Positions 43,281 through 63,653 of a stretch of 64,000 nucleotides of DNA are shown piece by piece. A model generated the notes under the pieces. The model did not search any database, was not told where the DNA came from, and was given only the letters and a program-made list of their open reading frames with translations. The first letter of the stretch is position 1, and each line of letters opens with the position of its first letter. Source of the DNA: Arcobacteraceae bacterium (GTDB taxonomy: Bacteria; Campylobacterota; Campylobacteria; Campylobacterales; Arcobacteraceae); the NCBI GenBank assembly GCA_963662945.1, contig OY759974.1, positions 1,088,001 to 1,152,000 on the forward strand, read 5' to 3'. The translations under genes were made by a program, and so were the position numbers.

Positions 43281-43305
43281 TATAGTGAATTTTGTATATT
43301 GCTCT

Positions 43306-44935: not shown

Positions 44936-44948
44936 AACTAACTATATG

Positions 44949-45806
44949 CTATATTGATATAACTTTTAAATTGCCTTTTTGTGTAAAAAATATCTCATTA
45001 TAATAAGTTGTTAAATTACTTACTCTATCTTTAGTAATTTGACTAAATACTTTATTTTTAATATTAAATTTATACAACCCATTTCTAGCTTGAATAATAT
45101 AATATGATTTATCAAAACTTATTACTAATTTAATAGTATTTGGAACATCATTCTCAGGTAGTACATAGCGGCTTGTATCTCCATTTTTAATATTAACTAA
45201 TAATAAGCCAAAGTCATAATCTATTATTGCTAATTGATTGCTTTTGTGATCATAGTAAATATCTTGAGGATTGTTAATTTCTAATTTATGTAATGTTTTA
45301 TAAACAAATTGTGACTTTTTATTTTTATAATCAATTCTATAAACTCCTGAATTTAAAATTGAAAGAAAAATGACTCCGTCATGTGCAACAATAGATGTAA
45401 TAGGTATAGTTTGATCTTGATTATTGAATATATCTAAATATATATCATCAATAAAACTATCATTTCTTAAGTTTATTCCAATTAATCCTCTTGTATTAGA
45501 AATAATAAATAGTACTTGCAGTATAGGATCGATAGTAATAACTTGTGCATCATTTATACTTTTTACTTTCTCTGTATAATTACTATAATATTTGTATAAC
45601 CCATCTCTAGTTAGTATGTAAAACCTATTTCCATATGCTTTAATATCTAAAATTATTGTATTATTCAAATTAAAGTTTGGTTCAAATATTAAATTTTCAT
45701 ACTTTTTATATTTTGTCTTAATATAGTCTTTGGTTATCTCTCCATTTAAATAACTTTTAAATAAATATGATTTATAAATAAATAAGGAAGTGATAATATT
45801 ACTCAT
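44949..45806 (-). CDS. Hypothetical protein, beta-propeller-like repeats
   Basis: Recurring blade-like motifs (LTRDGLY, SNTRGLI, ILNSGVY, DYDFGLL, QARNGLY). Confidence 0.55.
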   Translation of the reverse strand: MSNIITSLFIYKSYLFKSYLNGEITKDYIKTKYKKYENLIFEPNFNLNNTIILDIKAYGNRFYILTRDGLYKYYSNYTEKVKSINDAQVITIDPILQVLFIISNTRGLIGINLRNDSFIDDIYLDIFNNQDQTIPITSIVAHDGVIFLSILNSGVYRIDYKNKKSQFVYKTLHKLEINNPQDIYYDHKSNQLAIIDYDFGLLLVNIKNGDTSRYVLPENDVPNTIKLVISFDKSYYIIQARNGLYKFNIKNKVFSQITKDRVSNLTTYYNEIFFTQKGNLKVISI

Positions 45807-46240
45807 AATAACTTGCCTTCTATTAAGGTAGCAATTTCATCTTCAGATAAAATATCATTTGTACACCAAAACTCAAGTAGACTATTACCAATATCGTATT
45901 TTTTATTTTTTTCTTTAAAAGGAAAGACTGGATACCCATGCCAATCATCAGATTGAGGATTTTGTACTGCAGGAAAATAGCCAAACTGTTGTTTTTTTGT
46001 ACCAACTTTAATAATATCATTATCTTGCCTAATAAATCCCCACATATGCCCATTACAATCAATCCATTCTATACGTTGAGAATTTACCATTGTTCCAACT
46101 TCTGAAGTATCAAAAGTTTCAACTTCTAAAACTCTAGAAATCCATAGAGAATGCTTCTTATTTATACTGCTATAATGATGTTTTCCTCTGGATAGGTAAC
46201 TTTTAATACCTAATTTTGTAGGAAGTCTAATATCTCCCAT
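45803..46240 (-). CDS. Hypothetical protein with a WHGYP motif
   Basis: 145 aa, GAGGA RBS, 4-nt overlap with the downstream gene. Confidence 0.6.
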   Translation of the reverse strand: MGDIRLPTKLGIKSYLSRGKHHYSSINKKHSLWISRVLEVETFDTSEVGTMVNSQRIEWIDCNGHMWGFIRQDNDIIKVGTKKQQFGYFPAVQNPQSDDWHGYPVFPFKEKNKKYDIGNSLLEFWCTNDILSEDEIATLIEGKLL

Positions 46241-46251
46241 TTAATTCCTCA

Positions 46252-47001
46252 TTAGTTGATTGATTCAATATCTATCCATTCACCATAGTAATTGTCCGAG
46301 TACCAGTAAATTCTATCTCCTGTATCATATTTATTTCTATCATTTTCAAACTCTTGCTTTAAAGACTCAAAAATTGTAAATTTTAAAGTTTTAATTAAAT
46401 CTACTTTTTTATTATCAGTCTTAATATGAAGTTCTAAGGAGTAATTTCCATCTTTCCAATTAAAATGTTTTTCAAACAATTCTTCAAATGCCACAATAAA
46501 TGACTTATTTGCCCTTACTATTTCACCTTTTTCAGTTTCTTTTTTAATTCTTTCAATTTCATTTTTTAAGTTTCTTTCATTCTCTTTGTATTTTTTAACA
46601 TCATCTCTTGAAAAAAAATTTAAAAATCTTGCTCCATGGTGCCACTCCTCATTTGGATCAAGAGATACTTTCTTAAATGGAAAATAATAACTATCATTAA
46701 ATTTTTCTAAATAATTTTTTAAAGGCAATTTCATTATTTTTTCACCGTCTCTATAAACATCAATAAATATTTGATTTATGGATAAAGACGAACCACCAAT
46801 ATTTTTTATTATCAAATTTATTTGTATTATAGGATTACCAACATGATGTGTAATCCAAATTGAATCGTAAATATCAACTTCTAATTTTGCTTTTTTAAAG
46901 AAACGCCTAAGATAAGGAAGTGCACTTATTATCAGTGCTATAAAAGCAATAACCACACTCCAAAATTCTGGACGTGTGTAAAATGAAATATTATTATCCA
47001 T
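46252..47001 (-). CDS. Hypothetical protein with a single N-terminal TM helix
   Basis: FWSVVIAFIALIISALP followed by a beta-rich soluble domain. Confidence 0.6.
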   Translation of the reverse strand: MDNNISFYTRPEFWSVVIAFIALIISALPYLRRFFKKAKLEVDIYDSIWITHHVGNPIIQINLIIKNIGGSSLSINQIFIDVYRDGEKIMKLPLKNYLEKFNDSYYFPFKKVSLDPNEEWHHGARFLNFFSRDDVKKYKENERNLKNEIERIKKETEKGEIVRANKSFIVAFEELFEKHFNWKDGNYSLELHIKTDNKKVDLIKTLKFTIFESLKQEFENDRNKYDTGDRIYWYSDNYYGEWIDIESIN

Positions 47002-47227
47002 TAGATATTTCCTAGTAGTAGTATAGTTAACATTTTAACATAGTATACTTATATTAAATAATAAAACTAAAATGTAATTTAATAAAATTTTTGTGTAGTA
47101 AAAATACCATTATTCTTTTTATTATTTAAAGTATATACTAAGTATGTGCAATTATTTTATTTTATAATATTGAAGTTTAATATTATTTTGTATACTCCTA
47201 GATACTCTTTGTAACTTATATTTACTA

Positions 47228-48973
47228 TTAAATATCTAGTATTTCAAGAATTTTACTTTCTAACCAATTTTTTCTATTTTCTATAGAAGTAGCATTCCAC
47301 TCCATAGGATAATCAGCAATAACTTTTTTAGTCATATCAAATGCTGTTACACCTGTATCATCTTCAGAATATTTACCTTTTCCTTTATAAATATTGATTT
47401 TTATATTATAAGGATTATTACTTGCAGAAATATTTTTTGAGCCACTCAATAGCGTTAAATTACCTAAACTATGTAAATATCTATTTACTTCATCTATAGT
47501 AAATTTATTTTTCCAATCATCAAATTCATTCCAACCAATTGGTAAAATGTGTTCTGTATGAATTGTATTATCTAAGTGAATGTACGCTAATTTTGCATCA
47601 TCTGTTATCCTATATTCTATTATTGTTAATAAAGGCTTTATCCATGCTGTATGATAAACATCATTACTATTAATCACTTCTTTAACTTGTTTTACAATAT
47701 TATCTTTTTCAAGTTTATTATTTAAACTAGTAGTTATATAGTTTATATGCTTTTTATCTTTTATCCATGAAATCATGTTAAATGAAATTTGTTTAATATG
47801 AGATAGTGTTTTTCCTGACATCCAATTTAAATAATAAAATCTTCTAAGAGAAATTTGTAACTCATCATAATATTCATAGTTTGTATGTAAAGCTGTAAGT
47901 AAAATACTCTTCCAGTATACTGTCCATCTTAAATACCAAAAGGAATAAAGTATTTTATCTTCCTTGTCCCAAATCTGATTTTTATAGGCATTAACAAACT
48001 CTGAAAAATCTTTTATGGTTTCATTTGGATCTTGTTGTTCAAAAATATCTTGCAATTCATCAGAAAGTGATTTTTTTGGATTTCTAGCAATTAAATAGTA
48101 AAGGTATAATGTAAACATATCGTTCATACTATCATATGTACCAGTTAATAAATTTTCTAAACGTCTCCATTCCGCAATAAACTCGTTTTCATCTTCTATC
48201 CTCGCTTCAAAATTTTCACCCTCATCAACATATTTTTTTTCTATTTGTTCTAATAAAAAGCTTTTTACTAAATCTGATGCAGTAAGGTCCATTCCCCTAT
48301 CATTTAAGACTTGAAATAGTTTTATTGCAAAACTTCTATCTTCACAATCTATTCTAATTATTGACACTTTATTAAATAAATATTCAATTAAATCTCCTGC
48401 TTTATCTTCACCAATCTCTTCAAGTTTACTTCTTAATATATAGGCACTATTTTGAAATTTCAACTTTGGTTGTTCATCATCCTTAAGTTGATACTTATAA
48501 GGTTTTTGATGCTTTAAAGTTGATCCCTCATTTATAATATTTTGTTTAAAGTCTGCAGAATGTTGGGGATCAGTAAGTAAAGTTAGTCTTTGATCACCAA
48601 AATTAAATATAGCACTGTTAATATGGTTTGTATTAATAGAATTTTTATTGTTATTAATATTAGGATATAAATCTCTTAATACACATAACAATATCATTAA
48701 AGTTGTTAACCTTTGTTGTCCATCAACAATATCAAATCTATTTGAACCCGCTTGCGGAGCTGCAGTAATTATTGAACCTAAAAAATAGTTTTTTGATTCA
48801 TTCTCAAATGATTCAAAAATATCATCCCATAACTGTTCAATTTGTTCATCTAGCCACTTATATGGTCTTTGATATTTAGGTATTCTATAAATAGAATCTG
48901 TATCCATAAAAAGTTGCTTTATTGTTCTTGATCTTGGTGTAAATAGTTCCAAATTATCCCTTTCATTAATCAC
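47228..48973 (-). CDS. DUF262-DUF1524 (GmrSD-like, type IV restriction) protein
   Basis: IPKYQRPYKW, IVDGQQRLTT and FQVLNDRG; C-terminal HNH-type EHILP and LGNLTLL...N. Confidence 0.88.
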   Translation of the reverse strand: MINERDNLELFTPRSRTIKQLFMDTDSIYRIPKYQRPYKWLDEQIEQLWDDIFESFENESKNYFLGSIITAAPQAGSNRFDIVDGQQRLTTLMILLCVLRDLYPNINNNKNSINTNHINSAIFNFGDQRLTLLTDPQHSADFKQNIINEGSTLKHQKPYKYQLKDDEQPKLKFQNSAYILRSKLEEIGEDKAGDLIEYLFNKVSIIRIDCEDRSFAIKLFQVLNDRGMDLTASDLVKSFLLEQIEKKYVDEGENFEARIEDENEFIAEWRRLENLLTGTYDSMNDMFTLYLYYLIARNPKKSLSDELQDIFEQQDPNETIKDFSEFVNAYKNQIWDKEDKILYSFWYLRWTVYWKSILLTALHTNYEYYDELQISLRRFYYLNWMSGKTLSHIKQISFNMISWIKDKKHINYITTSLNNKLEKDNIVKQVKEVINSNDVYHTAWIKPLLTIIEYRITDDAKLAYIHLDNTIHTEHILPIGWNEFDDWKNKFTIDEVNRYLHSLGNLTLLSGSKNISASNNPYNIKINIYKGKGKYSEDDTGVTAFDMTKKVIADYPMEWNATSIENRKNWLESKILEILDI

Positions 48974-49101
48974 AAATTATATATAAAAGTTATTTTATCT
49001 TAATAGTTGTAAGTAAAATGTTAAATAATTAAACTTCTAACTACCCTAAAAATTCATAAATTATGATATACTACTAAAATATGATAATAGGGAGAAATAA
49101 A

Positions 49102-49773
49102 ATGAGTAATAGTCATATTACTTTTCCACAAAGAAAAATCAAAAAAAGCTACCGTTCTGTTACTGGACACTTCCCTAGTATTAAAAACAATAAATCAATA
49201 GCATTTGAATCAAAACTAGAAAGTGAATTTTTTTTAACTCTTGAATTTGATGATAATGTAGCCACTTATCAAGAACAACCACAAATTGAAATTATTTTAG
49301 ATAATAAAACAACAACTTATAGTGCAGATTGTTATATACAAAGACCAAAGGGCTCTTTAAATCGTGATGCTCTTGTAGAAGTTAAATATACTACTGAATT
49401 GGAAAAAGAAAAAGAATATTTTGATAAGAAATTTAAAGCTATTGAAGCTTCTACTGAAGAACTTGATTTAGACTTTATAATTTATACAGAACTTCAATAT
49501 CCTCTAGAATATATTACAAATCTTAAATTTTTATATCGATATAGAACTCAACAAAGAGAAATGAGATATGATGAGATTATTAATGAACTATTACAAGATA
49601 AAAAATTATCTGCACATGAGTTAGCAGAAACTATCTCAAAAAATAAAGCGGAATATATTATTGTAGCAAATGCAATTTGGGGCTTAGTTGCAAATAATAT
49701 ACTCACAACTGATTTAAAATCATCTGAGATTAACATGAAATCTATACTGGAGAAAAATAATGGCTGTTGTTAA
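49102..49773 (+). CDS. tnsA: Transposon endonuclease TnsA
   Basis: FESKLE, YQEQP, YSAD and LVEVK (PD-D/ExK). Start placed at the ATG after GGAGA. Confidence 0.9.
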   Translation: MSNSHITFPQRKIKKSYRSVTGHFPSIKNNKSIAFESKLESEFFLTLEFDDNVATYQEQPQIEIILDNKTTTYSADCYIQRPKGSLNRDALVEVKYTTELEKEKEYFDKKFKAIEASTEELDLDFIIYTELQYPLEYITNLKFLYRYRTQQREMRYDEIINELLQDKKLSAHELAETISKNKAEYIIVANAIWGLVANNILTTDLKSSEINMKSILEKNNGCC

Positions 49774-51667
49774 ACTAACTCTAAATTCAACTATTGTTTT
49801 TGAAGGTGTAAAATATCTCATCAAAGGTTATGCTTCCCTTGATGAAGTTCTTGTAAAACAAATAGATCCACCTCATAAGGAAAAGATTTTAAAAGTTAGT
49901 GATATTATTAAAGAACCTCAAAACTCAACAGATAACATTCAAAGAGAACTTGTGGATACCAATGACAAAGAGTTTCAAAAAGCACTAGAGAGATACAAGG
50001 TAATAGAATCTTTAGTTGATATGCCAAGTAGAAACTCCAAAGAGGTACAAAAAGTTGCTAAAAAATATAAAAAAGGTGTAGCTACTGTTTATCGTTGGTT
50101 AAGTACTTTTGAAAAATTTGGTACTATTAGCTCATTGGTAGCTTCTTATAACAACTGTGGAGGTAAAGGGAAAAGTCGTCTCAATGAATCTGTAGATGCA
50201 GTTATAGACTCGGTACTTGAAGAACTATATCTCAATAAACAAAAATATGCTTTTCTAACAGTTTATAGAAAAATAGAGCAGCTATGTAAAAATCTTGAAT
50301 TAGAAGTTCCAAACAAAAACACGGTAAGAAGTAGAATCAAAGCACTAGACCCAAAACTTATCACTAAATATAGACATGGTGAAAAGATAAGAGATACAAG
50401 AGGAACACCTGGAAAGTTTCCAGAAGTAAAAATGCCCCTTGACGTTATACAAATAGATCATACTAAAGTTGATGTAATACTTGTTGACGAAGAGACAAGA
50501 GAAGAGATAGGAAGACCATTTATTACAGTTGCTATTGATGTATTTAGTAGAATGATATATGGTTTTTATATCTCTTATGAAGCTCCAAGTTTTTTTAGTG
50601 TTGGACAATGTCTTTTACATGCCATCTTACCCAAAGATGAAATATTAAAAAAATACAATGTAACTGGAGAATGGCCAGTTTTTGGTCTACCCCAAGCAGT
50701 CCATATGGATAATGGAAAAGATTTTCAATCAGTGAGTCTAAAAAAGTTTTGTCAAGAATATAGAATATCTGATATTTATAGACCCGTTGCTCGCCCAGAA
50801 TTTGGTGGAAAAATCGAGAGGGTGATAAGAACAGCAATGGAAAAAGTTCACGAATTACCAGGTTCAACATCTTCTAATATTCAGGACAAAGGAACCTATG
50901 ATTCTCAAAAAATGGCTACTATGACTATCAATGAATTAGAACAATGGTATACGGACTTTGTAGTAAATATTTATCATAAAACAATACATAGTAGCCTTGG
51001 TGTGACCCCTGAAGAAAAATTCTATGAGGGTATGTATGGAGTTAGTGGTGACTCTATACCTTTTTTACCACAAGTTCCTGCAGATACTATTAAACTAAAA
51101 ATGTCACTTCTTCCAGCTTTTGAAAGAACTGTACAAAAAAATGGAATCACAATAGACTATATAACCTATTTTTCCGAAACACTTAGAAAATGGATAGTAC
51201 CAGCAGCCTATAAAAAACTCAATAAGACTTCAAATACAATAACTTGCAGAAGAGACCCAAGAGATATTAGTAAACTTTATGTATATGACCCAGATATAAA
51301 TGATTATATAATTGTACCCTATGCTAATATTAAAAAGCCAGCTATGAACCTTACAGAGCTAAGAAGAGCTATTTCTGAAGCTAAGAAAACAGTAACAGGA
51401 AGAGAACTAGAATCATATGATATCTATGAAGCTTATGACAGACTTCACCAATATGTAGAAAATTCAAAAAGAGAAAAGAAGTCTGCAAGAAGACAAGCTA
51501 GTTCAAAAAAGCATTTAAAAAAGAATATTGAATACGAAAAACAAATCTTACAAGATGGTAATGGTCTTAAACAAGATGAGAAATCACTCCAAAACTCAAC
51601 AACTCATATCCAGAATACTTTTCAAGAAGAAGAGGATGATGGCTATGAATATTATCCAATTGGTTAG
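49760..51667 (+). CDS. tnsB: DDE transposase TnsB/TniA (Mu-like)
   Basis: HTH ATVYRW; QIDHT, GRP..T.AIDVFSR, DNGKDF, GKIER, RDPRDIS; acidic C-terminal tail. Confidence 0.93.
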   Translation: MAVVKLTLNSTIVFEGVKYLIKGYASLDEVLVKQIDPPHKEKILKVSDIIKEPQNSTDNIQRELVDTNDKEFQKALERYKVIESLVDMPSRNSKEVQKVAKKYKKGVATVYRWLSTFEKFGTISSLVASYNNCGGKGKSRLNESVDAVIDSVLEELYLNKQKYAFLTVYRKIEQLCKNLELEVPNKNTVRSRIKALDPKLITKYRHGEKIRDTRGTPGKFPEVKMPLDVIQIDHTKVDVILVDEETREEIGRPFITVAIDVFSRMIYGFYISYEAPSFFSVGQCLLHAILPKDEILKKYNVTGEWPVFGLPQAVHMDNGKDFQSVSLKKFCQEYRISDIYRPVARPEFGGKIERVIRTAMEKVHELPGSTSSNIQDKGTYDSQKMATMTINELEQWYTDFVVNIYHKTIHSSLGVTPEEKFYEGMYGVSGDSIPFLPQVPADTIKLKMSLLPAFERTVQKNGITIDYITYFSETLRKWIVPAAYKKLNKTSNTITCRRDPRDISKLYVYDPDINDYIIVPYANIKKPAMNLTELRRAISEAKKTVTGRELESYDIYEAYDRLHQYVENSKREKKSARRQASSKKHLKKNIEYEKQILQDGNGLKQDEKSLQNSTTHIQNTFQEEEDDGYEYYPIG

Positions 51668-52551: not shown

Positions 52552-53733
52552 ATGGCACAGTCAAAGAGAAATCAGGATTGGGTTCAAGACTATTTCTTTT
52601 TGATTATTCCAAAACTTCTACCAGATGAGTTATTAAGTTCATGGCTTACAAGATTAGCAATTGAACATAGATATAAACTTTCTGACTTTCTATCTTTATT
52701 TGTTAGAAAACAAGGACATAAAATCTGTAATATAGATATAGATTTTCAGTACAATGAAAAATTATTTCTAACCTTAGCTTTAAAAAGCAATATACCTATA
52801 AAAGATATTTGGAAACTGTCCCTTAGTAGTGAAGAGGGATATCTCTATTCCTGTAATGATTGCCTCTATCCTCCTAAACAAATAAGAAAATTAAAAGACA
52901 AAAGAACACACTATGGACTGATGTTTTGTCCAAAATGTTTAGCTGAAGATAAAATACCTTATTTTAGAAAAAAATGGAGATACTATTTTTATAATGCTTG
53001 TCCTAAACATAATATTTTTTTAACAGATAGATGTTGGTGCTGCTATGAAAGAATTTGTCTTCCTAAAATATCACATATGAAAGGTTTATCATATTGCAGT
53101 AGATGTGAAAAAGATTTAAGTACTACTATAGCAATACCTTTACAAAGTAATTATCAATATGCTTTAAAGGCTATACGATGGTTTGAAAAAGGTTTAAAAA
53201 AAGGCTATTTTATCATCAATCATCAAAAAGTAGCTTCTCTATTTGTCTTTGAAAGCTTCACAAATCTTTGCTTTTTACTTGATAGAAAAGAAAATTTAGT
53301 TTTAGATAACTTTCCAATGATTCAAGAATACGAAACAATATGTAAAAAACTTGCAAAATATGATTCTAAAAAAGCAACTTCTATACAAAAAGATTTTATC
53401 TTAACAGCAATGGTATATTTTTTATTTCAAAACTATCCAAAAAATATTCTAAGTTTTGCAGAAACTAACCATCTAACACATAGAGAATTTGTACATGGTT
53501 TTATAGATATCCCATATTGGTACAAAAATATAATTGACGAACTACTACCAGCACAAAATAAAATTGGTAGAGAGATAAGTGAAAGTGAAGTTAGAGCAGC
53601 TATAAAATATTTACAGAAACAGAATACTAAAGTAACACAGGAGGCAGTTGCAAACATTGTTGGCTGTCATTTTAGTATTCATAAGGGATTTGTGAAAATT
53701 TATAAAGATGCAAAAAAGTATTTGACCTTATAA
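52552..53733 (+). CDS. tniQ: TniQ/TnsD-family target selector
   Basis: PDELLSSWLTRLA, FCPKCL, W...CPKH...L.DRC, CSRC; C-terminal HTH-like TQEAVANIVG. Confidence 0.9.
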   Translation: MAQSKRNQDWVQDYFFLIIPKLLPDELLSSWLTRLAIEHRYKLSDFLSLFVRKQGHKICNIDIDFQYNEKLFLTLALKSNIPIKDIWKLSLSSEEGYLYSCNDCLYPPKQIRKLKDKRTHYGLMFCPKCLAEDKIPYFRKKWRYYFYNACPKHNIFLTDRCWCCYERICLPKISHMKGLSYCSRCEKDLSTTIAIPLQSNYQYALKAIRWFEKGLKKGYFIINHQKVASLFVFESFTNLCFLLDRKENLVLDNFPMIQEYETICKKLAKYDSKKATSIQKDFILTAMVYFLFQNYPKNILSFAETNHLTHREFVHGFIDIPYWYKNIIDELLPAQNKIGREISESEVRAAIKYLQKQNTKVTQEAVANIVGCHFSIHKGFVKIYKDAKKYLTL

Positions 53734-53734: not shown

Positions 53735-54736
53735 CTAATCCTTGATTTTATCAAATAAGTCAAACTCTATTGTATATTTATTAATTCTAAAATACCCTTC
53801 GCTTGATGATGCAGAGTAAGAATCAGTAAATGGGTAATGTATATGTAAATTTATATCCTGATTATCATAATATTCATTCTCAAATATATAAAATAAAGCA
53901 ATTCCTATAGTTTGCGCTTTTGTTGCTAAAGGAGCTAAATGAATATTGTTAACTGCACTTTTATTTATAGATACATATTTTTTAACATATTCTGAAATAA
54001 CATGAGCTGTAATAAATGGGTTATTAGCAGGAGCATAAAGCAATTCTGTATTTTCTTTTATACCAAGTTCAGTTTTTGATTTTAATAAATTTAATATATT
54101 TTCTTGATACATAATAGCTTGCAAAGAAGGAAAACCAATTAATGGTTTAATTTCATTTGCTGTGACATTACGTATAACTTTATTAACCAATTTAGAATCA
54201 TATCCTACATTTACTATAAATAAATCATTTTCTCCTGATTTTGAGTATGTTTCGTATGGTGAGACAATATTTCTTGATTCAACAATATTATCAGAAAATT
54301 TTGTTTTATCACTTTTTAAATATCTCTGAGGTTCTGTATAAATTAAGTCGAATTTATCGATTCCCTTTTCTTTAAACCAAAATAAAAGAAAAACTAAATA
54401 AGGCTTATTAAAACCTGTTGTATCTATACAAATTTTATCCTTATCAGTAATATTTATATATTTTTCACACATGGCATTAATATATTCAGATTCTTTAATA
54501 TTATGATTAATTATATTATATTCAAAGATTTCACCATTAATTTGGGAAGTATCTATATTGTATTCTGGGAAAATTAAATATATCTTTTTTTCTGCCTGTA
54601 TATTATCATATGTTTTAATGACAATATCTTCTTGTGTGTATGCAGAGATAAATAAATCATAATTTTCAATATCTGTAGAAAACTCTTCAAAGCTTCTATA
54701 AGAATCATAATTAAAAAGATGATACTTACTAATCAT
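53735..54736 (-). CDS. Hypothetical alpha/beta protein, last gene of the four-gene cargo operon
   Basis: ICIDTTGF, YTEPQRY, GFPSL and LAPLATKAQ motifs. Confidence 0.65.
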   Translation of the reverse strand: MISKYHLFNYDSYRSFEEFSTDIENYDLFISAYTQEDIVIKTYDNIQAEKKIYLIFPEYNIDTSQINGEIFEYNIINHNIKESEYINAMCEKYINITDKDKICIDTTGFNKPYLVFLLFWFKEKGIDKFDLIYTEPQRYLKSDKTKFSDNIVESRNIVSPYETYSKSGENDLFIVNVGYDSKLVNKVIRNVTANEIKPLIGFPSLQAIMYQENILNLLKSKTELGIKENTELLYAPANNPFITAHVISEYVKKYVSINKSAVNNIHLAPLATKAQTIGIALFYIFENEYYDNQDINLHIHYPFTDSYSASSSEGYFRINKYTIEFDLFDKIKD

Positions 54737-56745
54737 TATAAAGTATCTCCAAATAAACTAGGAGTAATAAAAGAAAGCACTTTTTCTTTTTTGTTGAAAG
54801 GGGCATTATATCTTGACATATACTCTTTATGAATATTTAGCCATTCTTTATCTTCACCTTTACATAATATCTCTATATCATCAGCTTTAAATTGAAAAGT
54901 TCCTCCTATAGCAATATGCAAATCCCATTTTGCTGTTAAGATTGCAGGGACAGAATAACTATCCAACATCATTCCAGAGTTATTTTTTTCTTTTTTATCA
55001 ATACTTTTTTTTATTAGTAACATATGATTAACTGCTTTAGTAAGAATTGACTCTGATTCCTCTGATAATGTACCCTTATAGGAAAAAGCAATCAATGTTT
55101 TCTCCGTAGGTTTATTTGACATTCGAAATGCTTTAAAAAAACTATTTATTCTCTCTATCATTTTAATAACGAGTTTATTTTCTATATCTATAATTGCATA
55201 AGTCCAAAACTCATCTGAAGCATCTTTTATTGCTTTATATTGAGTTTTACATTTTATGGGATTATTACTATCAAACATAGGTTCTTCAGAAAATTTAGAA
55301 TTAATATAAATTTCACTTAATATCAACATTAAATTTCTAGGATTTGCATGCGAAAAATCAATTATTTTTTCAAGACCACAATTAAAAAATGTTATCGAAT
55401 AATCTCTACAAATCTGAAAGTAAAAGGTATTTTTTAAATGCCTAAGAGTTTCATTATCATGAATATTTTTAGAACTTCCTTCCATTGAACTTTTAATTTC
55501 TATACTTTTTTCAACTAAATTCTTGTTTTTACTCCAAGCTTGATATAGCAACCATATATTTTCTTTTTCTTTAAGTGGATCCATTGGACAAAATAAATTA
55601 TCTATTATAATTGATATTTCATCTAATGATAAACTTAATTCTTCTGAATATTCTTCTAACTGTTTTGATAAAGTTAAAAAATACTTTCTATCTTTCGAGT
55701 CAGGATGAATATCTAATACTTTTTTGATTATTTGATTTTCATTTAATTTTTGAAAAGAATCAATAAGAGCTTTCTCATCTAAATTAGCAAGATTTTTATT
55801 AAGTCTTTTTCTAATTAAATTAATAGCAAACTGTTTATAGTTGTTTGAATTATCAAGGTATGTTTCTAAATATTTTTTCGTTACTTCTGCATATGAATTT
55901 TTTTCATCATCTGAAAAAGTTTTTTCTTCTTTTATTGAATATAATCTACCTGATATTCTTATTGAAATTCTTTCTGAATATTTAGGGTGTCTTAAAATTG
56001 TATTCACAAAAACTTGCTGTTCTTTACTTAAATCTTCAAACTGGTCTAATAAAAATAAGAATCGAACATCTTTCAAAATCTTACTAGAATCTAGTATATA
56101 ATAACATATATCATAGAACATATTCGATCTTGTATCGAAAACTACATCAATATCAAGAGAATCTTTAAATCCTGTACGTAATCTCGAAAAAGCCCTATCA
56201 ACTTTTTTATGTTCTTGTCGGATTTTTTTATATATATACTCTATTGTAATTGTTTCATCAACTGAATCAAAAAAACACTCATTATACATACTAGAAACTT
56301 TTTCACAGTCTATATCATCTAACCCATTTAGCTGTAAATCTATTATTTGTTCTAAAAATGCTTCAATCAAAATTAAATTAAAATAATAAAAATACCACTC
56401 TTCCCAAATTGACTTATCTAATTTTGAGCCACTAAATCTTTCAAACTGAAAGTTTCCTAATTCTAATAGTAAACTTGTATATTTATCCTCTTTAATTTGC
56501 TCTAATATGGATCTATGTGTCGTTTTTAAAGCTCTAATTTTTTGAGCCTTATAAGAGCAATATCGTAAAATGTGAGTTTTCCCACTTCCTTTTCCGCCTA
56601 ATATTATTAAAGGTCTAGGATTTGTAGGTTCAATTACATCCAAAAACTTTTTATGTTCAATTTCATCATTTAATTCAACCCAAAAATTAACTATTTCATC
56701 ATTATTTAAATGAACAGCTTTAATATTTGAAAATGGATTATTCAT
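54736..56745 (-). CDS. Large P-loop ATPase (STAND / ORC-Cdc6-like)
   Basis: ILGGKGSGKT (Walker A), FLLDQFEDL (Walker B) and NPRNL. Confidence 0.8.
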   Translation of the reverse strand: MNNPFSNIKAVHLNNDEIVNFWVELNDEIEHKKFLDVIEPTNPRPLIILGGKGSGKTHILRYCSYKAQKIRALKTTHRSILEQIKEDKYTSLLLELGNFQFERFSGSKLDKSIWEEWYFYYFNLILIEAFLEQIIDLQLNGLDDIDCEKVSSMYNECFFDSVDETITIEYIYKKIRQEHKKVDRAFSRLRTGFKDSLDIDVVFDTRSNMFYDICYYILDSSKILKDVRFLFLLDQFEDLSKEQQVFVNTILRHPKYSERISIRISGRLYSIKEEKTFSDDEKNSYAEVTKKYLETYLDNSNNYKQFAINLIRKRLNKNLANLDEKALIDSFQKLNENQIIKKVLDIHPDSKDRKYFLTLSKQLEEYSEELSLSLDEISIIIDNLFCPMDPLKEKENIWLLYQAWSKNKNLVEKSIEIKSSMEGSSKNIHDNETLRHLKNTFYFQICRDYSITFFNCGLEKIIDFSHANPRNLMLILSEIYINSKFSEEPMFDSNNPIKCKTQYKAIKDASDEFWTYAIIDIENKLVIKMIERINSFFKAFRMSNKPTEKTLIAFSYKGTLSEESESILTKAVNHMLLIKKSIDKKEKNNSGMMLDSYSVPAILTAKWDLHIAIGGTFQFKADDIEILCKGEDKEWLNIHKEYMSRYNAPFNKKEKVLSFITPSLFGDTL

Positions 56746-57729
56746 TCAACTATTTCCTTTTTTTAAAAGCATATACTTTTTACTATATCGTTTAAATATT
56801 GATTGCCATTGCTTATTATTTGCCCAAAATATGGGAAGACTATTATTAGGAATATTATAAAAAAACCCTAATGCTAATTGGCCATCAGCAAATCCACACT
56901 CGTCCTTATTTAATTTTTTATTTTCATCTCTACTAATATCTTCATTTCCTAACTCAAACTTTTTTGAATAAGTATTTACACATAGTTCTTTAAATTCTTC
57001 TTTACAATTAGAAATAGTTTGAAAATATCTAGAAGTATCTGAAAAAACCTTATATGTCTCATCCAATTCAAAAATAGTATCAACATTATCAAATAGTTTT
57101 GAATCTTTTAGAGTTTTTAATGCTGTAGTAGTTGCAAATAGCGTGAAATATGAAATTTTAATTTTAGGAACTTTAGTTCTAATCTCTGAAATAATTTTAT
57201 GAAAACTTTCATTAGTTGCCTGACTACCACTACCACTTATATCATCAATATAAATTAACTGTTCTAGTTCATTATATTTTTCATTAACTATTAGTTCACA
57301 AGAATGAATAAATAATTCCTTTGGAATATTATTTCTTTGCCTAAAAAAATAAAGTATTATACTACTACTTTCTGATGGATTACCAATACTAGAAAATCTA
57401 GTTTTTAATAAGCTGTCATCTAAATATTCATTGTAATCATTTAACTTTAATGATTTCATTTCTTTTCTATATTTCTTTACTAAAGGAGCAATATATTTAT
57501 CTTTATATAATGATTTTAAAGCCTGTTTTATTTCTCTCTGATCATAAAACATAAATTGACTAAGAAGACTTAACGCAATAAACTTATTTTTATTTCTTTT
57601 ATCAGAAACTTCTTCAAAGTTCTTTAACCATTCTTCTATATCTTGTTCTAAAACTTTATGTCCCCATAACCATGTTGATAAATCTTGTATTTGGTCTTTT
57701 AACTTTTGTATTTGATTATTATATGTCAT
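56746..57729 (-). CDS. Phosphoribosyltransferase-fold protein (conflict-system type)
   Basis: PRPP loop IYIDDISGSGSQ, ESS motif and C-terminal GF...NIPNNSLPIFW. Confidence 0.78.
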   Translation of the reverse strand: MTYNNQIQKLKDQIQDLSTWLWGHKVLEQDIEEWLKNFEEVSDKRNKNKFIALSLLSQFMFYDQREIKQALKSLYKDKYIAPLVKKYRKEMKSLKLNDYNEYLDDSLLKTRFSSIGNPSESSSIILYFFRQRNNIPKELFIHSCELIVNEKYNELEQLIYIDDISGSGSQATNESFHKIISEIRTKVPKIKISYFTLFATTTALKTLKDSKLFDNVDTIFELDETYKVFSDTSRYFQTISNCKEEFKELCVNTYSKKFELGNEDISRDENKKLNKDECGFADGQLALGFFYNIPNNSLPIFWANNKQWQSIFKRYSKKYMLLKKGNS

Positions 57730-59092
57730 TATTTTTCTTAAATACTACAATATATTCTCTAGAAATAACACTAGCAGTTTTATTCCTTTTTGTCATTAAT
57801 CCTCGAGATTTAATATCATCAATTAAAATTAACTCTGTTGAAAATCCAATTTTTTCAGCAATCTTTATTAAATATTTATGGGTCATAAACTCATACCCTG
57901 CAATAGTATTATTACCAATTACCATCACAAAATAACCATTATTTTTTAAAACTTTATAATAATGAGTAAAAGATTCCTGCATTTCAAGTAAGTATTTATA
58001 TGTAATATAGGCTCGTAACTTATTTTTTTCATAAATCTTTAATAATATTTTATCAATTTTATTTATCCCAAAAACATGTAACTTGTCATATTCTTTTTTT
58101 GGAAAGTGTTCTCTACCAATTGATTGCTTATCTAATTCAGCAATCGTAGAATTATTTAGCTCTAGCCACTGTAAACTTAAACTAGAAGCTCTGATATATT
58201 TTTGTGCACTAACATAAGGAGGTGAAGTTAAAATCAATTGAACCGTATTTTTTTTAATATCTTTTTTTGTTAAATGTTTAATATCACTATTATATACAGT
58301 AACTTCATTTGAACTTAACATTGTACTATTTTGATATTCAACAAGTCTAGCTATATTCTTATTGGCTTGTTCAATAAAAAATTCAAAAACTTTACTTTTA
58401 TCAATAAATTTTAAATTTTTTATAGCAGCTTCTCTAAGAGAATGACCTTCTGGAAATTTATCTTTATTAATTTTTACTGGTACTGAAATTCTAGGATCAG
58501 AATAACTGAACTTTTTACAACAAATAGAAAAAACTACCAAATAAAACTCTTTTATATTTTGATCACTAATTTGACTAACGATATCTTTAATTTTAGATAA
58601 TTTTCGCATATTTTGTTTACTATACCAATGTTCTATATTTGACACTTTAGGTATATGATATTGTTTTTTAGAGCTGCTATAAATTTCAAAAAGATTTTTA
58701 ATATTTTCTAACTCTTGTTTTAAATTAATTATATCTACTTTGGAAGTTTTTGTTTTTGCAATTAAAGCAGCTAGTGGATTAACATCAACACCTATTGCAT
58801 TTCTATTAGCAAGAGATGCTTCTAATAGTACTGTTCCTGTTCCACAAAAGGGATCTACTACTATATCTTGTTCTCTAGAAAAAACTGTATTATTTAAAAA
58901 AAAATATGGTATTTGCTGTAATAACTTTGCAGGATAAGAATGTATAAAATGAGTATGTCTATCCATATTTACAATACTAGGTACTAATTCTCTAAAATTA
59001 ACAGTTATTGGTTCTTGATTCTCTTTATATTTATTTATTAATTCTAAAATATAATTATCAAAAAAACTAATACCCTTATATTGTTTATTCAT
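57719..59092 (-). CDS. Site-specific DNA amino-methyltransferase (N4-C likely)
   Basis: THFIHSYPAK, DPFCGTGT (motif I) ahead of TSPPY (motif IV). Confidence 0.88.
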   Translation of the reverse strand: MNKQYKGISFFDNYILELINKYKENQEPITVNFRELVPSIVNMDRHTHFIHSYPAKLLQQIPYFFLNNTVFSREQDIVVDPFCGTGTVLLEASLANRNAIGVDVNPLAALIAKTKTSKVDIINLKQELENIKNLFEIYSSSKKQYHIPKVSNIEHWYSKQNMRKLSKIKDIVSQISDQNIKEFYLVVFSICCKKFSYSDPRISVPVKINKDKFPEGHSLREAAIKNLKFIDKSKVFEFFIEQANKNIARLVEYQNSTMLSSNEVTVYNSDIKHLTKKDIKKNTVQLILTSPPYVSAQKYIRASSLSLQWLELNNSTIAELDKQSIGREHFPKKEYDKLHVFGINKIDKILLKIYEKNKLRAYITYKYLLEMQESFTHYYKVLKNNGYFVMVIGNNTIAGYEFMTHKYLIKIAEKIGFSTELILIDDIKSRGLMTKRNKTASVISREYIVVFKKNNDI

Positions 59093-59167: not shown

Positions 59168-59947
59168 TTAAAATTCTATTTCAATACCTATTGGACAATG
59201 GTCAGAACCTTCTATTTCATCTAAAATAAAAGCATCTTTTAGTTTATTTTGTAAATCACTAGAAATAAAAATATAGTCAATTCTCCAGCCTTCATTTTTT
59301 ACTCGTCCTCTTGATCGATAAGACCACCAAGTATAAGCTTCTTCTTTTTCTCCATGAATCTGTCTATAGGTATCTATATAACCTACTTGGATAAACTTAT
59401 CTACACACTCCCTTTCAATATCAGAAAATCCAGACTTACTATATATTTTAGTTTTTTTTAAATCAATATCTTTATGTGCAATATTAAAATCACCACAGAT
59501 TATTATAGATTTTCCATCAGCTCGTAATTCTTCACAATGTGAAAAAAATTTATTATAAAAATTAATTTTAAATTCTAATCTTTCTTTTGATATCTTGCCA
59601 TTTGGAAAATAAACATTGAAAACTACTATATTTTCATAGTGTTGCTCAATAACCCTACCTTCCATATCAGCATCAACTAATTCACAAGTATTTTCTCTGA
59701 CGAAATCTATATTAGAATATGTCAAAGTACCAGATAAACCTTTCGTAATACCACTATTTACTGTAAAATTTTTATACTGTTTATTAAAGCTTTTAGGTAT
59801 TTCTTCTTTTATTGCTTTAATCTCTTGTAGACATAAAATATGAGGATGGATTTCATCAACCCAAAAAAAAGAATCTTTTTTTGCAGCAGCTCTTAAACCA
59901 TTAACATTCCATGAAAATATTCTTATTTTTTCTTTTAAAGTTTTTAT
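59168..59947 (-). CDS. xth: Exodeoxyribonuclease III / AP endonuclease (no canonical start codon)
   Basis: Frame is open upstream of the track's ORF through FSWNVNGLRA and LCLQEIK; NVYFPNG, GDFN, GWRIDY and GSDHCP. Confidence 0.88.
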   Translation of the reverse strand: MKTLKEKIRIFSWNVNGLRAAAKKDSFFWVDEIHPHILCLQEIKAIKEEIPKSFNKQYKNFTVNSGITKGLSGTLTYSNIDFVRENTCELVDADMEGRVIEQHYENIVVFNVYFPNGKISKERLEFKINFYNKFFSHCEELRADGKSIIICGDFNIAHKDIDLKKTKIYSKSGFSDIERECVDKFIQVGYIDTYRQIHGEKEEAYTWWSYRSRGRVKNEGWRIDYIFISSDLQNKLKDAFILDEIEGSDHCPIGIEIEF

Positions 59948-59963
59948 TAATATTTCCTATTAG

Positions 59964-61670
59964 CTATAAAAATATCTTTCCAATTAATCCAACTACCCAT
60001 TTAAACTTTTCATTATCAGTTAAATTTTCATTTCTCTCATGATTTTTTGTAGTGAATTTAATAGAACTCTCTTTATCTTGTTTTTTCATAGTATTTATTG
60101 CTTCAAGATCTTTAAAATGACGTGCTATGAAAATATGAAAATCACTATCCAAAATCTTTTGTTCTGATACCAATATCCAACTACTAGAAGCTGATGAAGG
60201 ATAATTTTCAAGTTCCAAAATTCCTACATGGAAATTTTTATAAATAAACGTTGCAGTTAAATACTGTCTAGGTCTACCATGCATCATACATTTAGAATTT
60301 ATATCTTCTGTATCTTTGATTGTAACTTTTGGCAACTCTTTTACCTCACTTAAATAAAATGATATTATCTCTTTTTGTATTTTTAAAAAATCCATGTATT
60401 GTCTAAATACTACAAAATTATCTATCTCAGATAAAGGCTTTGACTCATTCTGCTCTTTTTCAAAATTACTTGATACGACTACTTTTCTAATTTTTTTCTT
60501 CCCTTTTGTAGAAGACTCTGTTAGACTTTGATCAACTGCCTCATCAGATTGATGTTCTTCATAGATTTTAAATAAATCAATTATAGTCTCTTTAGTTACC
60601 GTCTCACTTTCAATTTCAATACCTTGAAGACTTCCACAAGTTTTTCTTTTTTCTTTTTGATGTTGAGTCTGAGTATTTTTTTTACTAGCAGCTTCAACTT
60701 TTAAAATTTCTGTTGTTTCATCTGGATTTTCTATATCTACTTTTGGTAAATTTTCTAATTCATCAATATCTGTTATTACCTTGTCTTTTTCATAATATTT
60801 AGTAAATTTATCAAAACCAATATCTGAATAATCATTTGTTATCTCATGCACATAATAAAATTCTTCATTTGTATCATCATTTTTCAATAAAGCTGCTCTT
60901 GTTTCAATTTTAAATATTTCTTTTATAGGAAACTTTACTTTAATAGGAACTGTCTTTATATCTTCTTTTTCTGGATAATTGTCATGCATAAACTTTAAAT
61001 AACTATGTATATACTTTGCAACATCTTCAAAAGCATAAGTTGCATCAGACTGACAGGCATATCTGTGAATAAAAGCAGCATCTGCATCTATTCTTGGATA
61101 TCTTAGTACAATTGAAGCATCATCCCTATCACAACAACAACCACTATATAGGTCATCTAATTTACATTTTAATACTGCTTCTCTTAAATGGGTAAATCTA
61201 TAGTAAAAGTAAATTGCAACTGCATAGTGGGGGATAATAATATTTACATTATCTTGTTTGAATAAATAACAATAGTTATACTTAGCTTCTTTTAAAAATT
61301 TTCTTTTCCAACCTATTAGTGAAACTATACTTTTTTCATCAAGTATTTTATGTAAATGTAAAGTATTGCTTTCTGCCAAATGTGTCGTATCAATAAGAAA
61401 GCTTTTTTCAGTTATATCTTTATTCGTATAATATTTAGTTTTGTCACCCTTTAGAAATGATTTTTCTAAAGGATAGTGGGTAAACAAAAGTTCAGGTGAC
61501 ATTTCATATAAAAAAACTTCTTTTTTTGTTATATTTTTGACTACAACATCAAAATGACTTTGACTATATTCTTCATCATCAAGTCTTAATCTAAGAGGAA
61601 AAAGTATTTTAAAAATATCTGTAGGATTATCTACCATAAATTCAGGGATAACACTCTTAGACTTTGACAT
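59964..61670 (-). CDS. TnsE-like target-selection protein
   Basis: By-eye colinear similarity to Tn7 TnsE as recalled: IIIP..., YYVHEI, NFVVF...FL, ELPKV, GRPR, ILELE, KNH. Similar length (568 aa). Confidence 0.7.
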   Translation of the reverse strand: MSKSKSVIPEFMVDNPTDIFKILFPLRLRLDDEEYSQSHFDVVVKNITKKEVFLYEMSPELLFTHYPLEKSFLKGDKTKYYTNKDITEKSFLIDTTHLAESNTLHLHKILDEKSIVSLIGWKRKFLKEAKYNYCYLFKQDNVNIIIPHYAVAIYFYYRFTHLREAVLKCKLDDLYSGCCCDRDDASIVLRYPRIDADAAFIHRYACQSDATYAFEDVAKYIHSYLKFMHDNYPEKEDIKTVPIKVKFPIKEIFKIETRAALLKNDDTNEEFYYVHEITNDYSDIGFDKFTKYYEKDKVITDIDELENLPKVDIENPDETTEILKVEAASKKNTQTQHQKEKRKTCGSLQGIEIESETVTKETIIDLFKIYEEHQSDEAVDQSLTESSTKGKKKIRKVVVSSNFEKEQNESKPLSEIDNFVVFRQYMDFLKIQKEIISFYLSEVKELPKVTIKDTEDINSKCMMHGRPRQYLTATFIYKNFHVGILELENYPSSASSSWILVSEQKILDSDFHIFIARHFKDLEAINTMKKQDKESSIKFTTKNHERNENLTDNEKFKWVVGLIGKIFL

Positions 61671-61694
61671 TTTATTTTCTTATTTTATTCTCAA

Positions 61695-61760
61695 TATCAA
61701 ACTTTAATAAAATCATTATCAAACTTTATTGTCCATTATCAAACTTTTTTGTTTCTTACA
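61695..61760 (-). repeat. Transposon end (right-type) with three closely spaced TnsB sites
   Basis: TATCAAACTTT at 61695, 61717 and 61737; minus strand starts TGTAAGAAACAAAAAAGTTTGATAAT. Confidence 0.9.
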
Positions 61761-63653
61761 TTTCATATCAATATGCAAATGAATAATATCCACAGCACTC
61801 GGTGTAACCCCACTTATTTGAGAAGCGTTAAAAAGTGTTGGTGGATTGAACTTTTTAAGCTTTTCTATAACTTCTGTTGAAAGTCCAGGGAGTTCATCGT
61901 AGATAAAATCTTCTGGTATCTTTAGATTTAACATCTTTTTCATTTTCTCTATCTGTTTTTGTTGTTTATCCACATATCTATAGTATTTTGCTTCCACTAT
62001 CACTTGCTCCTTTAAATAGTCATCAAGAGAAGCAAAACTAGGAACGAGTCTATCAAATTTTTCTTTTGTGATAGTGTTTCTTCCTACTAAATCTACGAGT
62101 AAAATTTGGTCTGAAATTTTATCTTCCCCTAACTCTTCAAGAAGTGCTAGGTTTTCTTTTTTTGATGTGAACCACTCATTTTCCATAAACTCAATAGCAT
62201 CTTTGATAGTTTGTTTTTTGTGTTCCATAGTTTTAAATGTATCATCATCTATAAGTCCAAAATCATGTCCATACTCCATAAGTCTCATATCAGCACTCTC
62301 TTCTCTTAAAAGAAGTCTGTACTCTGCTCGACTTGTAAACATTCTATATGGTTCATTTGTCCCTTTTGTTACAAGGTCATCTATTAAAACTCCAATATAA
62401 CTCTCATCTCGTCTTAATATAAAAGGCTCTTTACCATCAATTGCTAAACTAGCATTTATACCCGCCATTAACCCTTGCGCTGCTGCTTCTTCATATCCAG
62501 TTGTTGCGTTGATTTGTCCTGCTAAATAAAGATTTTTTATCTTTTTTGTTTCAAGGGTATGTTGCAATTCTGTTGGGTCTATGTAGTCATATTCTATGGC
62601 ATAAGCATATCTTACGATTTTTGCATTTTCAAGCCCTTCTATTGAGTGTATCATCTGCTTTTGTACATCAATAGGTAAACTTGAACTAAGCCCATTGATA
62701 TAATACTCTTCAGCTCTTTTTGTTTGTGGCTCTAAGAAAAGCTGATGTCTTTCACGTTCAGCAAATCTATTTACTTTATCTTCAATACTTGGACAATATC
62801 GTGGACCAGTCCCTTCAATTTGTCCTGTAAAAAGTGGTGCTCTATCAAAATTACTTCTTATAGTATGGTGAGTATCAAGATTTGTATATGTAATATAACA
62901 AGGAAGTTGCGTAGGATGAAACTCTTCTTTGTTTGTTCTAAAACTAAATGGATGTGGATCTTCATCTCCCCCGTGTGCTTCCATAACTGAAAAGTCTATT
63001 GAGTTTACATTTATCCTTGCAGGAGTTCCTGTTTTTAATCTTCCTACATTAAGACCCAATATTTTTAATTGGTCTGAAAGTGTAGTTGATGGTAATTCCC
63101 AAGCACGACCTGCTGGATATTGATTTTCACCAATGTGAATTAATCCTTTCATAAAAGTACCTGTAGTCAAAATAACTTTTTTTGCTTCAAAAGTTTCCCC
63201 AAGTTTTGTCTCTACTCCAAATACTGAAAGTTGATTATCTTGTGCATCTACTTTTAAAGCACTCACTTCATCTTGATATACATCTAAATTTGGAGTATTT
63301 AACGTAACATTTCTCATATATTCTCTATATGCATCCATATCAATCTGAGCACGACTTCCTTGAACTGCTGCACCTTTAGAAGCATTTAAAATTCTAAATT
63401 GAATACCAGTTGCATCAGTACACAATCCCATCTCACCACCAAGGGCATCTAGTTCTCGAACTAAATGTCCTTTAGCAAGTCCTCCAATAGCTGGATTACA
63501 ACTAGCTGCTCCTATTTGTTCCACTAACATAGTTATAAGTAAAGTTTTTTTACCCATTCTTGCAGCTGCAAGACTTGCTTCTATTCCAGCATGTCCCCCA
63601 CCAACTACTATAACATCATATTGTGATGATTGTTCTTGTGTTTGTTTTGTCAT
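61719..63653 (-). CDS. mnmG: tRNA U34 carboxymethylaminomethyl modification enzyme MnmG/GidA; last 13 aa encoded by the transposon end
   Basis: [32 protein letters not shown] and [11 protein letters not shown] motifs. Confidence 0.98.
61761..61765. repeat. 5-bp target-site duplication TTTCA (mnmG side)
   Basis: Immediately after ACA at 61760. Confidence 0.9.

Follow-up and report, generated by a model that had tools for sequence, protein, structure and literature searches.

A remote TnsE-like protein as the probable second target selector of an mnmG-associated, Tn6022-related transposon in Campylobacterota

Introduction

Can a Tn7-like transposon with a compact, TniB-type TnsC carry, besides TniQ, a second target selector of the TnsE type? 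The question is raised by a 568-aa open reading frame (ORF) in a 64,000-nt stretch of the genome of an Arcobacteraceae bacterium (GenBank assembly GCA_963662945.1, contig OY759974.1, positions 1,088,001 to 1,152,000), referred to below as the window. An earlier sequence-only reading of this DNA described the ORF as a detached, inverted tnsE-like gene paired with a short TniB-type TnsC, and proposed a two-pathway element (TniQ to mnmG, TnsE to mobile DNA) of unusual architecture. These claims were followed up here by comparison of protein profiles, predicted structures, transposon ends and related loci.

The published distribution of tnsE is narrow. The gene is given as restricted to Tn7 relatives and the Tn6022 group (PMC10293859); a 2021 survey placed TnsE in only two of four clades, and a 2023 survey and a 2024 review placed it in two groups only, Tn7-related (glmS) and Tn6022 (comM). 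Nearly all elements that target glmS or comM have a TnsE homologue (PMC11406308). The two TnsE types are less than 10% identical with folds that are alike (PMC10293859), and the spread of tnsE may be underestimated (PMC8649781); the surveys consider this probable, given how poorly TnsE is conserved. In the Tn6022 group, tnsE lies on the opposite strand near the end that is far from the core (PMC10293859; PMC11014353), and with TnsABC the distal Tn6022 TnsE directs transposition to the F plasmid (PMC11014353). The 2024 review describes the way in which TnsE recruits the transposition machinery as unknown.

Results

Similarity of the 568-aa protein to TnsE

The AF2 model of the 568-aa protein had a mean predicted local distance difference test (pLDDT) score of 72.8, with confident regions at residues 1-295 and 415-568 and values below 50 for residues 296-414. 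This gave a plan of three parts, an N-terminal domain (~1-295), a low-confidence linker (296-414) and a C-terminal domain (~412-568), to be compared with the 1-331, 332-380 and 381-538 of EcTnsE (PMC12153342). When the model was searched with Foldseek, the top seven rows were all TnsE C-terminal domains (probability 0.99-1.00, TM to target 0.55-0.66), at modest E-values of 3.6e-3 to 3.5e-2. Alignment of residues 412-568 with VIA-align gave Z 13.0 against 9d5l_A (root mean square deviation 3.2, 146 residues aligned), 12.5 against 5d17_A and 12.3 against 5d16_A, with 143-146 residues aligned across the three TnsE entries and a Z of 5.6 for the next entry. In structure, the C-terminal domain aligned to residues 383-537 of Tn7 TnsE. 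The TnsE-like identity put forward in the sequence-only reading was thus upheld by the structural comparison with the TnsE C-terminal domain (Z 12.3-13.0).

A homologue search returned 228 proteins at E <=0.001. The best 120 of the 228 were 50-59% identical and came mostly from Aliarcobacter and its relatives, and some of these 120 carried the UniRef name 'TnsE C-terminal domain-containing protein'. An exhaustive search for relatives yielded 117 cluster representatives, and a further homologue search started from an alignment of 46 relatives recovered just the close set already obtained. In the PDB, a profile built from the 46 relatives had the three chains of TnsE C-terminal domains as its top matches (E 0.017-0.06). 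Aligned by hhalign to Tn7 TnsE (comparison sequence taken from plasmid R721), it matched columns 405-557 to residues 385-534 at E 1.3e-4, over 143 columns. The motif pairs named in the sequence-only reading fell into register in this alignment: LPKV with LPKV, GRPR with GSPR and ILELE with LLEVD. Against the PDB, a profile of 26 close relatives found no match, and phmmer of the 568-aa protein found only an irrelevant coiled-coil match (E 0.05). The Pfam family TnsE_C (PF18623, curated cut-off 26.7 bits) was matched by one of the 26 close relatives and, at E <=0.01, by 10 of 44 distant full-length relatives, always in the last ~140 residues; two of the 44 scored above the cut-off. A comparison of the whole 2.5-Mb genome to TnsE_C left this ORF as the sole candidate, with a score of 15.3 bits that falls short of the cut-off.

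In binding DNA, the TnsE C-terminal domain makes no sequence contacts; its backbone-contacting residues include Asn509, His510 and Lys512 (PMC12153342). Their equivalents in the hhalign alignment were N543, H544 and R546. Among the 26 close relatives N543 and H544 were invariant and R546 nearly so, and H544 was invariant in all 46 sequences. The observation that the 568-aa protein appears to be a remote member of the TnsE family holds, as judged from profile alignments and the predicted fold.

The N-terminal domain aligned with a 605-aa ORF of Acinetobacter baumannii (hhalign probability 79%, E 1.6e-5, 243 columns), which lies ~36 kb from a Tn6022-like core and on the opposite strand. The TnsE N-terminal domain consists of two SSB/PriB-like oligonucleotide/oligosaccharide-binding (OB) folds (PMC10293859). 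For residues 82-285 of the present protein the OB-fold rows were weak only (ExoVII Z 3.9, PolC Z 3.0, RPA Z 3.0), and the ESM Atlas gave no usable match to residues 1-296. The stretch around the invariant P147 (IIIPHYAVAIYFYY) paired with HIPQLELARSLFL of Tn7 TnsE, presumably the N-terminal motif through which TnsE binds the beta sliding clamp, only in a non-significant BLASTP segment (E 30).

Position of the gene in the window and in relatives

In the window, the tnsE-like gene is the first gene inside the mnmG-side end of the element. It reads inward, convergent with tnsABC-tniQ, and mnmG lies directly upstream in the same direction. The arrangement described from the sequence was confirmed: the start codon (61670) and the innermost end site (61696) are separated by 25 nt, the end of the ORF is 6,231 nt from the end of tniQ (53733) on the opposite strand, close to the ~6.2 kb first given, and the 289-aa TnsC is of the TniB type (Table 1). 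The sole annotated domain of TniQ is the TniQ domain itself, at residues 18-157.

The same gene was found at 13 loci on genome contigs from Arcobacteraceae, Sulfurovum, Sulfurimonas and Campylobacter. It followed mnmG directly in 12 of them, the thirteenth having just 163 nt of upstream sequence, and a convergent tniQ-tnsC-tnsB-tnsA array was present in six, from 36 nt to more than 8 kb downstream of the gene. Within the host family, 29 of 184 genomes contained a match, which was long in 18; the frame was intact in 16 of these 18. The gene was absent from all 27 other genomes of the same genus that were searched. All 20 family copies checked followed mnmG directly, including two that belong to a subfamily only 25-27% identical, where the layout was unchanged and the TniB protein had 285 aa. 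In a sample of the phylum, matches were found in 36 of 401 genomes and 15 of 64 genera.

A cognate TnsC (at least 80% identical) was encoded in 16 of the 184 family genomes. All 16 carried the tnsE-like gene on the same contig, convergent with the cognate tnsC and 1.9 to 17 kb from it, and the association with Tn7-like elements proposed earlier therefore held. The core was likewise convergent with the gene at 12 of 12 metagenome loci with any core gene visible. At all 15 loci inspected the gene was the first inside the end, and the cargo around it varied between elements. The same layout was seen in all relatives with a visible core; a detached, convergent gene is therefore ancestral to this branch and not peculiar to this copy. 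The label 'unusual architecture' given in the sequence-only reading was accordingly dropped, the layout having already been described for Tn6022-type elements.

A more distant relative of 573 aa (22% identical) was located beside a truncated comM in the same phylum (locus L080). It was convergent with a tniQ and matched TnsE_C at 28.0 bits, against the cut-off of 26.7.

In many family genomes the gene was reduced to its first 30-80 codons, frequently interrupted by stops (G091:C1:3388450-3388641, G148, G183, G100, G153). These fragments are probably scars of lost elements.

Transposon ends and the mnmG junction

Three exact ATCAAACTTT cores were present on the plus strand at 61696-61705, 61718-61727 and 61738-61747, with a spacing of ~21 bp. 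With one mismatch allowed, the motif was found 35 times in the window against 25.0 expected, which is no enrichment. The six exact copies were all confined to three short stretches (61696-61747, 44821-44931 and 43269), which are the ends of the element. At the mnmG side the element terminates in ACA (61758-61760; 5'-TGT in minus-strand reading). Its counterparts are the TGT at 44808 and that at 43153, and the layout common to the ends is TGT + 10 nt + AAAGTTTGA(T/G)AA, inverted. At both distal ends a second site lies ~100 nt further inward, so that the mnmG-side sites are tightly packed and the far-end sites spaced. Tn7R and Tn7L show a similar difference between packed and spaced sites. The element spans 44808 (or 43153) to 61760.

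The transposon end was found to lie inside the mnmG frame, for which it supplies the final 13 codons and the stop. The native last four codons of mnmG are replaced by transposon-end sequence, the insertion being located four codons ahead of the native stop; in element-free congeners, mnmG stops 4 to 9 codons past the same ATATGAAR. The sequence at the mnmG 3' end reads ...ATATGAAA at the junction, and congener G129 carries a 19-nt scar, TGTAAGAAACAAAAAAGTT, exactly at this position. Across 15 related loci the end structure was constant: TGT, three sites (the distant subfamily has two) and, after 15-25 nt, the ATG. From genus to genus the mnmG junction shifted by no more than 1 nt.

The 5-bp flank of the outer distal end, TTTCA, is the same as the flank at 61761-61765; that of the inner end is CTTCA. 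The stretch 43153-61760 may have moved as a single unit. Between the two distal ends (43153-44807), the outer left-type end is followed by a 1.6-kb relic with two ORFs, one of 72 aa and one of 346 aa that has a weak Cas6_N match. At 44776-44807 there is a 32-nt copy of the mnmG tail, identical to the native tail of congener G135. Positions 44776-44786 were considered as a relic of a transposon end; this was rejected, as they are native mnmG-tail sequence as found in G135.

On the minus strand of 61693-61742 the site repeats form promoter-like pairs, TTGATA-16 nt-GATAAT (10/12) and TTGATA-18 nt-GATATT (9/12), which sit just upstream of the tnsE-like gene. The promoter scan overall gave no excess over shuffled sequence (17 vs 15.4). 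No terminator-like site was found between mnmG and the tnsE-like gene.

Copies of the element away from mnmG

Metagenome data contributed 37 loci, 21 of them with an informative upstream flank. The flank was mnmG at 16 of the 21 (two of the 16 being the same contigs as L006 and L013), while one copy lay inside the 5' end of a resident tnsE relic. The other four had mutually unrelated flanks: a fragment of an IS1595 transposase (L044), the end of an HD-domain gene in a housekeeping neighbourhood (L059), a small membrane ORF and an unassigned stretch, two of the four being too short to classify. Over the first 258 residues, three of these four TnsE-like proteins were 84-93% identical to copies at mnmG and the fourth 56%. 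The presence of closely related elements both at mnmG and at unrelated sites fits the trace expected of a sequence-independent second route, for which the TnsE-like protein may be responsible.

The distal end of the L059 element was looked for and not found, hence no target-site duplication is available for this copy. Beyond its tnsA, part of a second tniQ lies in inverted orientation, with 38% identity to the window TniQ (L059:16937-17296 and 12912-12979); this region is rearranged or nested.

At L001 (9826-9990) and L049 (1-190), a complete new end begins inside the 5' part of a resident tnsE relic, 8 codons in at one locus and ~24 codons in at the other. Occupied sites are therefore re-used slightly inward and not at the original junction.

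Predicted contact with TnsC and patterns of divergence

A complex of TnsC (12-row alignment) with residues 1-296 of the TnsE-like protein (16-row alignment) was modelled and gave a score of 0.84 (runs 0.83-0.85), compared with 0.00 for the best control. In the calibration, 0.84 was reached by 116 of 157 solved complexes and by 2 of 215 mismatched pairs, a guide that is only rough since our own alignments were used. At least 98% of contacts were common to the runs, with a partner pLDDT of 89. The predicted interface involves residues 80-96, 119-125 and 139-144 of TnsC and residues 31-35, 99-100, 169-170 and 215-230 of the selector. To our knowledge there is no solved TnsE-TnsC complex. Compared with solved structures, the TnsC profile best matched VchTnsC (E 1.3e-16), followed by ShTnsC of ShCAST (E 9.8e-10).

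The two mnmG-targeting subfamilies were 53% identical in TniQ, 43% in TnsC and 25% in the TnsE-like protein. That TniQ was the best conserved of the three fits a role as reader of the conserved site. The mean pairwise identity over 12 elements was 51% for the TnsE-like protein, 62% for TniQ and 80% for TnsC. Divergence of the TnsE-like protein correlated with that of TnsC (r 0.85) and of TniQ (r 0.82) over 66 pairs, the points not being independent as the elements are kin; without the distant subfamily the correlation with TnsC dropped to r 0.62. The closest core relative of the window element, L060, was 89% identical in TnsC, 83% in TnsB and 71% in TniQ, but only 46% in the TnsE-like protein, which was among the most distant. 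A close core joined to a distant TnsE-like protein points to recombination, and these sequence identities suggest that the end and the selector may be exchanged as one module.

Gene content of the element

The features of the window that belong to or adjoin the element are listed in Table 1; the G+C content of the region is ~25%. The three ORFs near the distal end had no Pfam or PADLOC family match. The GmrSD-type nuclease gene is divergent from tnsA, and a 94% identical copy occupies the same position in L005 (9261-10982). The order methyltransferase, PRTase-CE, ORC-CDC6-like ATPase and CARF-like protein is kept in L043:11913-17363 and L060:2772-8283 at 51-92% identity, and the four genes look like one defence module.

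No ATG, GTG or TTG was found in the exonuclease III-like frame ahead of the TTG at 59725, and either the start is unusual or it has been lost. Truncation of this gene was ruled out, as the frame is full length. A homologue of xth adjoins the tnsE-like gene in L044, L046, L060, L073 and L077, in varying orientation.

Table 1. Coordinates of the transposon features and of the attachment-site gene in the window
Feature	Position	Strand	Evidence or description
tnsE-like gene	59964..61670	minus	568 aa, ATG start at 61670
tnsA	49081..49773	plus	PF08722, E 4.1e-10
tnsB	49760..51667	plus	Mu-transpos_C E 2.2e-11, rve E 3.4e-7
tnsC, compact TniB type, 289 aa	51680..52549	plus	PF05621 (TniB), E 2e-51
tniQ, 393 aa, presumed mnmG selector	52552..53733	plus	PF06527, E 4.1e-22
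mnmG (gidA), attachment-site gene	61719..63653	minus	TIGR00136, E 6e-261
Cargo block, tniQ to tnsE-like gene	53735..59092	minus	Four genes
CARF-like protein (cargo)	53735-54736	minus	
ORC-CDC6-like ATPase (cargo)	54736-56745	minus	
PRTase-CE (cargo)	56746-57729	minus	
DNA methyltransferase (cargo)	57719-59092	minus	
Exonuclease III-like frame (cargo)	59168..59956	minus	Open for 263 codons
Cargo, distal end to tnsA	44949..48973	minus	Three ORFs (285, 145 and 249 aa) and GmrSD-type nuclease
GmrSD-type nuclease	47228-48973	minus	
mnmG-proximal transposon end	61693..61760		Terminal TGT and three abutting TnsB-type sites
Inner distal end	44808..44936		TGT at 44808; sites ~44816-44833 and 44917-44936
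Outer distal end, same type as inner	43153..43285		TGT at 43153

Discussion

Proposed role of the TnsE-like protein

The whole of the data is probably best explained by a remote TnsE acting as a second, non-TniQ selector in a Tn7-like, TniB-type transposon related to Tn6022. In this scheme TnsA and TnsB would cut and join the ends, the 289-aa TnsC would act as adaptor, and TniQ would target a single exact site within the final codons of mnmG. The TnsE-like protein would most likely give TnsC a second entry route, its C-terminal domain binding duplex DNA without sequence preference and its N-terminal domain binding TnsC, according to the model, via the long helix 208-231. This route could place insertions at replication or repair structures, and conjugating plasmids may be among the targets. 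Cargo accumulates between the tnsE-like gene and tnsABC-tniQ.

A more detailed version, drawn from the complex model, has residues Y220, Y224 and L225 of helix 208-231 docking on TnsC 80-96, 119-125 and 139-144, with the output of the selector set by TnsB occupancy and by read-through from mnmG. This regulatory part is based on the gene being co-directional with mnmG, with no terminator in between, and on its invariant placement behind three TnsB sites with promoter-like hexamers. As a whole this version is tentative, and we would not expect it to be correct in full.

Several observations count against a TnsE-type second selector. The sequence-level E-values to solved TnsE are all weak: BLASTP against Tn7 TnsE was empty (best E 1.3), and the 568-aa protein had no Pfam (E up to 10), NCBIfam or PADLOC match. 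hhalign of its N-terminal domain against that of Tn7 TnsE gave a probability of 0.5%, and Lys458 of the TaTnsE V-loop, which enters the major groove, aligns with Ala494. The predicted interface is no better conserved than the remainder of either protein (0.38 vs 0.52 for the N-terminal domain, 0.70 vs 0.81 for TnsC). The gene contains stop codons in two genomes (G156 and G158) and is kept without a cognate TnsC in two others (G045 and G086). The copies away from mnmG include one among housekeeping genes and one by an IS1595 fragment, and a plasmid location was seen for none; tblastn of the 568-aa protein against 72,556 plasmid records gave 0 matches, and the distant relative P0235 also had none in this collection. 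The exact mnmG insertion and the copies at unrelated sites fit the two-pathway element first envisaged; a targeting of plasmids was not borne out by the plasmid records.

Alternative explanations

The alternative that fares best, although unlikely, is that the TnsE-derived protein is a partner of TniQ in the recognition of mnmG, as TnsF is for comM in Tn6022, with no independent second pathway. In its favour, the gene accompanies mnmG in 20 of 20 family genomes, and apart from it only tnsABC-tniQ is conserved; there is no TnsF, judging from the lack of a window protein that matches the 481-aa Acinetobacter ORF; TniQ has the TniQ domain alone annotated (18-157); and plasmid copies are missing from the 72,556 records. 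A reader of the site should, however, be the conserved protein, and between the mnmG subfamilies this is TniQ (53%) and not the TnsE-like protein (25%) or TnsC (43%). Related elements are found at four unrelated sites as well, three of them with proteins 84-93% identical to mnmG copies, and a relative of the protein occurs in a comM-associated element, with a different target. The absence of sequence contacts between the TnsE C-terminal domain and DNA (PMC12153342) also speaks against specific recognition of mnmG.

Marginally less probable than this is a working TnsE relative aimed not at conjugating plasmids but at chromosomal replication-termination or repair structures, or at resident mobile elements. 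It would account for the non-mnmG copies in a housekeeping context (L059) and by an IS1595 transposase fragment (L044), for the two copies inside the 5' end of a resident tnsE (L001, L049) and for the lack of plasmid matches. This phylum may, however, be poorly represented in the plasmid collection, two of the four flanks offer too little sequence for classification, and the Tn6022 homologue directs insertion into the F plasmid (PMC11014353). A decaying passenger or cargo gene without a transposition role is highly improbable: stops in two of the 18 family genomes with a long match and two genomes without a cognate TnsC would agree with it, but the frame is intact in the other 16, the gene is the first inside the end at 15 of 15 loci and present in 16 of 16 genomes with a cognate TnsC, it diverges in step with TnsC and TniQ (r 0.85 and r 0.82; 66 pairs of kin elements), and the surrounding cargo varies.

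Significance

This lineage adds a third home site, mnmG, for Tn7-like elements with a TnsE-type gene. For Tn6022, the combination of a distal, opposite-strand TnsE and a short TnsC has been published before; not found in print were the mnmG home site, the TnsF-free lineage, the selector as first gene inside the end and the TnsC-contact model. Among the papers listed by the literature search, none pairs mnmG with Tn7-like elements. Standard Pfam cut-offs miss this selector. The system is small and TnsF-free, consisting of TnsA, TnsB, a 289-aa TnsC, TniQ and TnsE, with exact ends and an exact target, and a lineage this compact may reveal how TnsE brings in the transposition machinery. Since the predicted TnsC-TnsE interface passed its controls, recruitment of TnsC by TnsE is testable with a few point mutants. 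Between selector and core, the elements carry anti-phage cargo.

Comparison with known systems

The TnsC proteins of Tn6677 (VchCAST, type I-F) and ShCAST (type V-K) are AAA+ adaptors of compact size that lack the long extensions of Tn7 TnsC, as is the case here. Unlike the present element, these systems lack TnsE, and their selectors are TniQ together with Cascade or Cas12k.

With Tn7 TnsE (538 aa; PDB 5D16 and 5D17; TaTnsE 9D5L) the protein shares the C-terminal fold, a similar length and the three-part plan with a long disordered linker. Equivalents of Asn509, His510 and Lys512 are kept and that of Lys458 is not; there is no pairwise sequence similarity, and the N-terminal domains are not detectably alike. 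In Tn7, tnsE is the last gene of a tnsABCDE operon with a 555-aa TnsC and insertion occurs after glmS, whereas here the gene is detached and convergent, TnsC has 289 aa and the target is mnmG. At the level of the core, TnsB is 26% identical to that of Tn7, and TnsC gave no BLASTP match.

Identities were higher to a Tn6022-like element of A. baumannii, the core of which encodes TnsA (232 aa), TnsB (633 aa), TniB (283 aa), TniQ (363 aa) and a further ORF (481 aa): 37% for TnsB, 36% for TnsC, 28% for TnsA and 30% for TniQ. These values place the present element on a Tn6022-related branch. It differs from Tn6022 in several respects. Tn6022 has TnsF (Orf3/TniE) after tniQ, whereas here tniQ is followed at once by convergent cargo, and none of 18 window proteins matched the 481-aa post-tniQ ORF of the comparator at E <=0.01. 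Tn6022 inserts into the interior of comM; the present element occupies the 3' end of mnmG, which is kept open with a rewritten tail. Also in contrast to Tn6022, here tnsE comes directly after the end, with 25 nt between it and the last TnsB-type site, and the host range is Campylobacterota. The likeness to the Tn6022/AbaR type covers a heteromeric TnsA/TnsB, a short TniB-type TnsC (283 aa in the comparator, 289 aa here), TniQ, and a remote, opposite-strand tnsE near the core-distal end. The distal proteins can be aligned over their N-terminal domains, and the 22%-identical relative sits in a comM-associated element of the same phylum.

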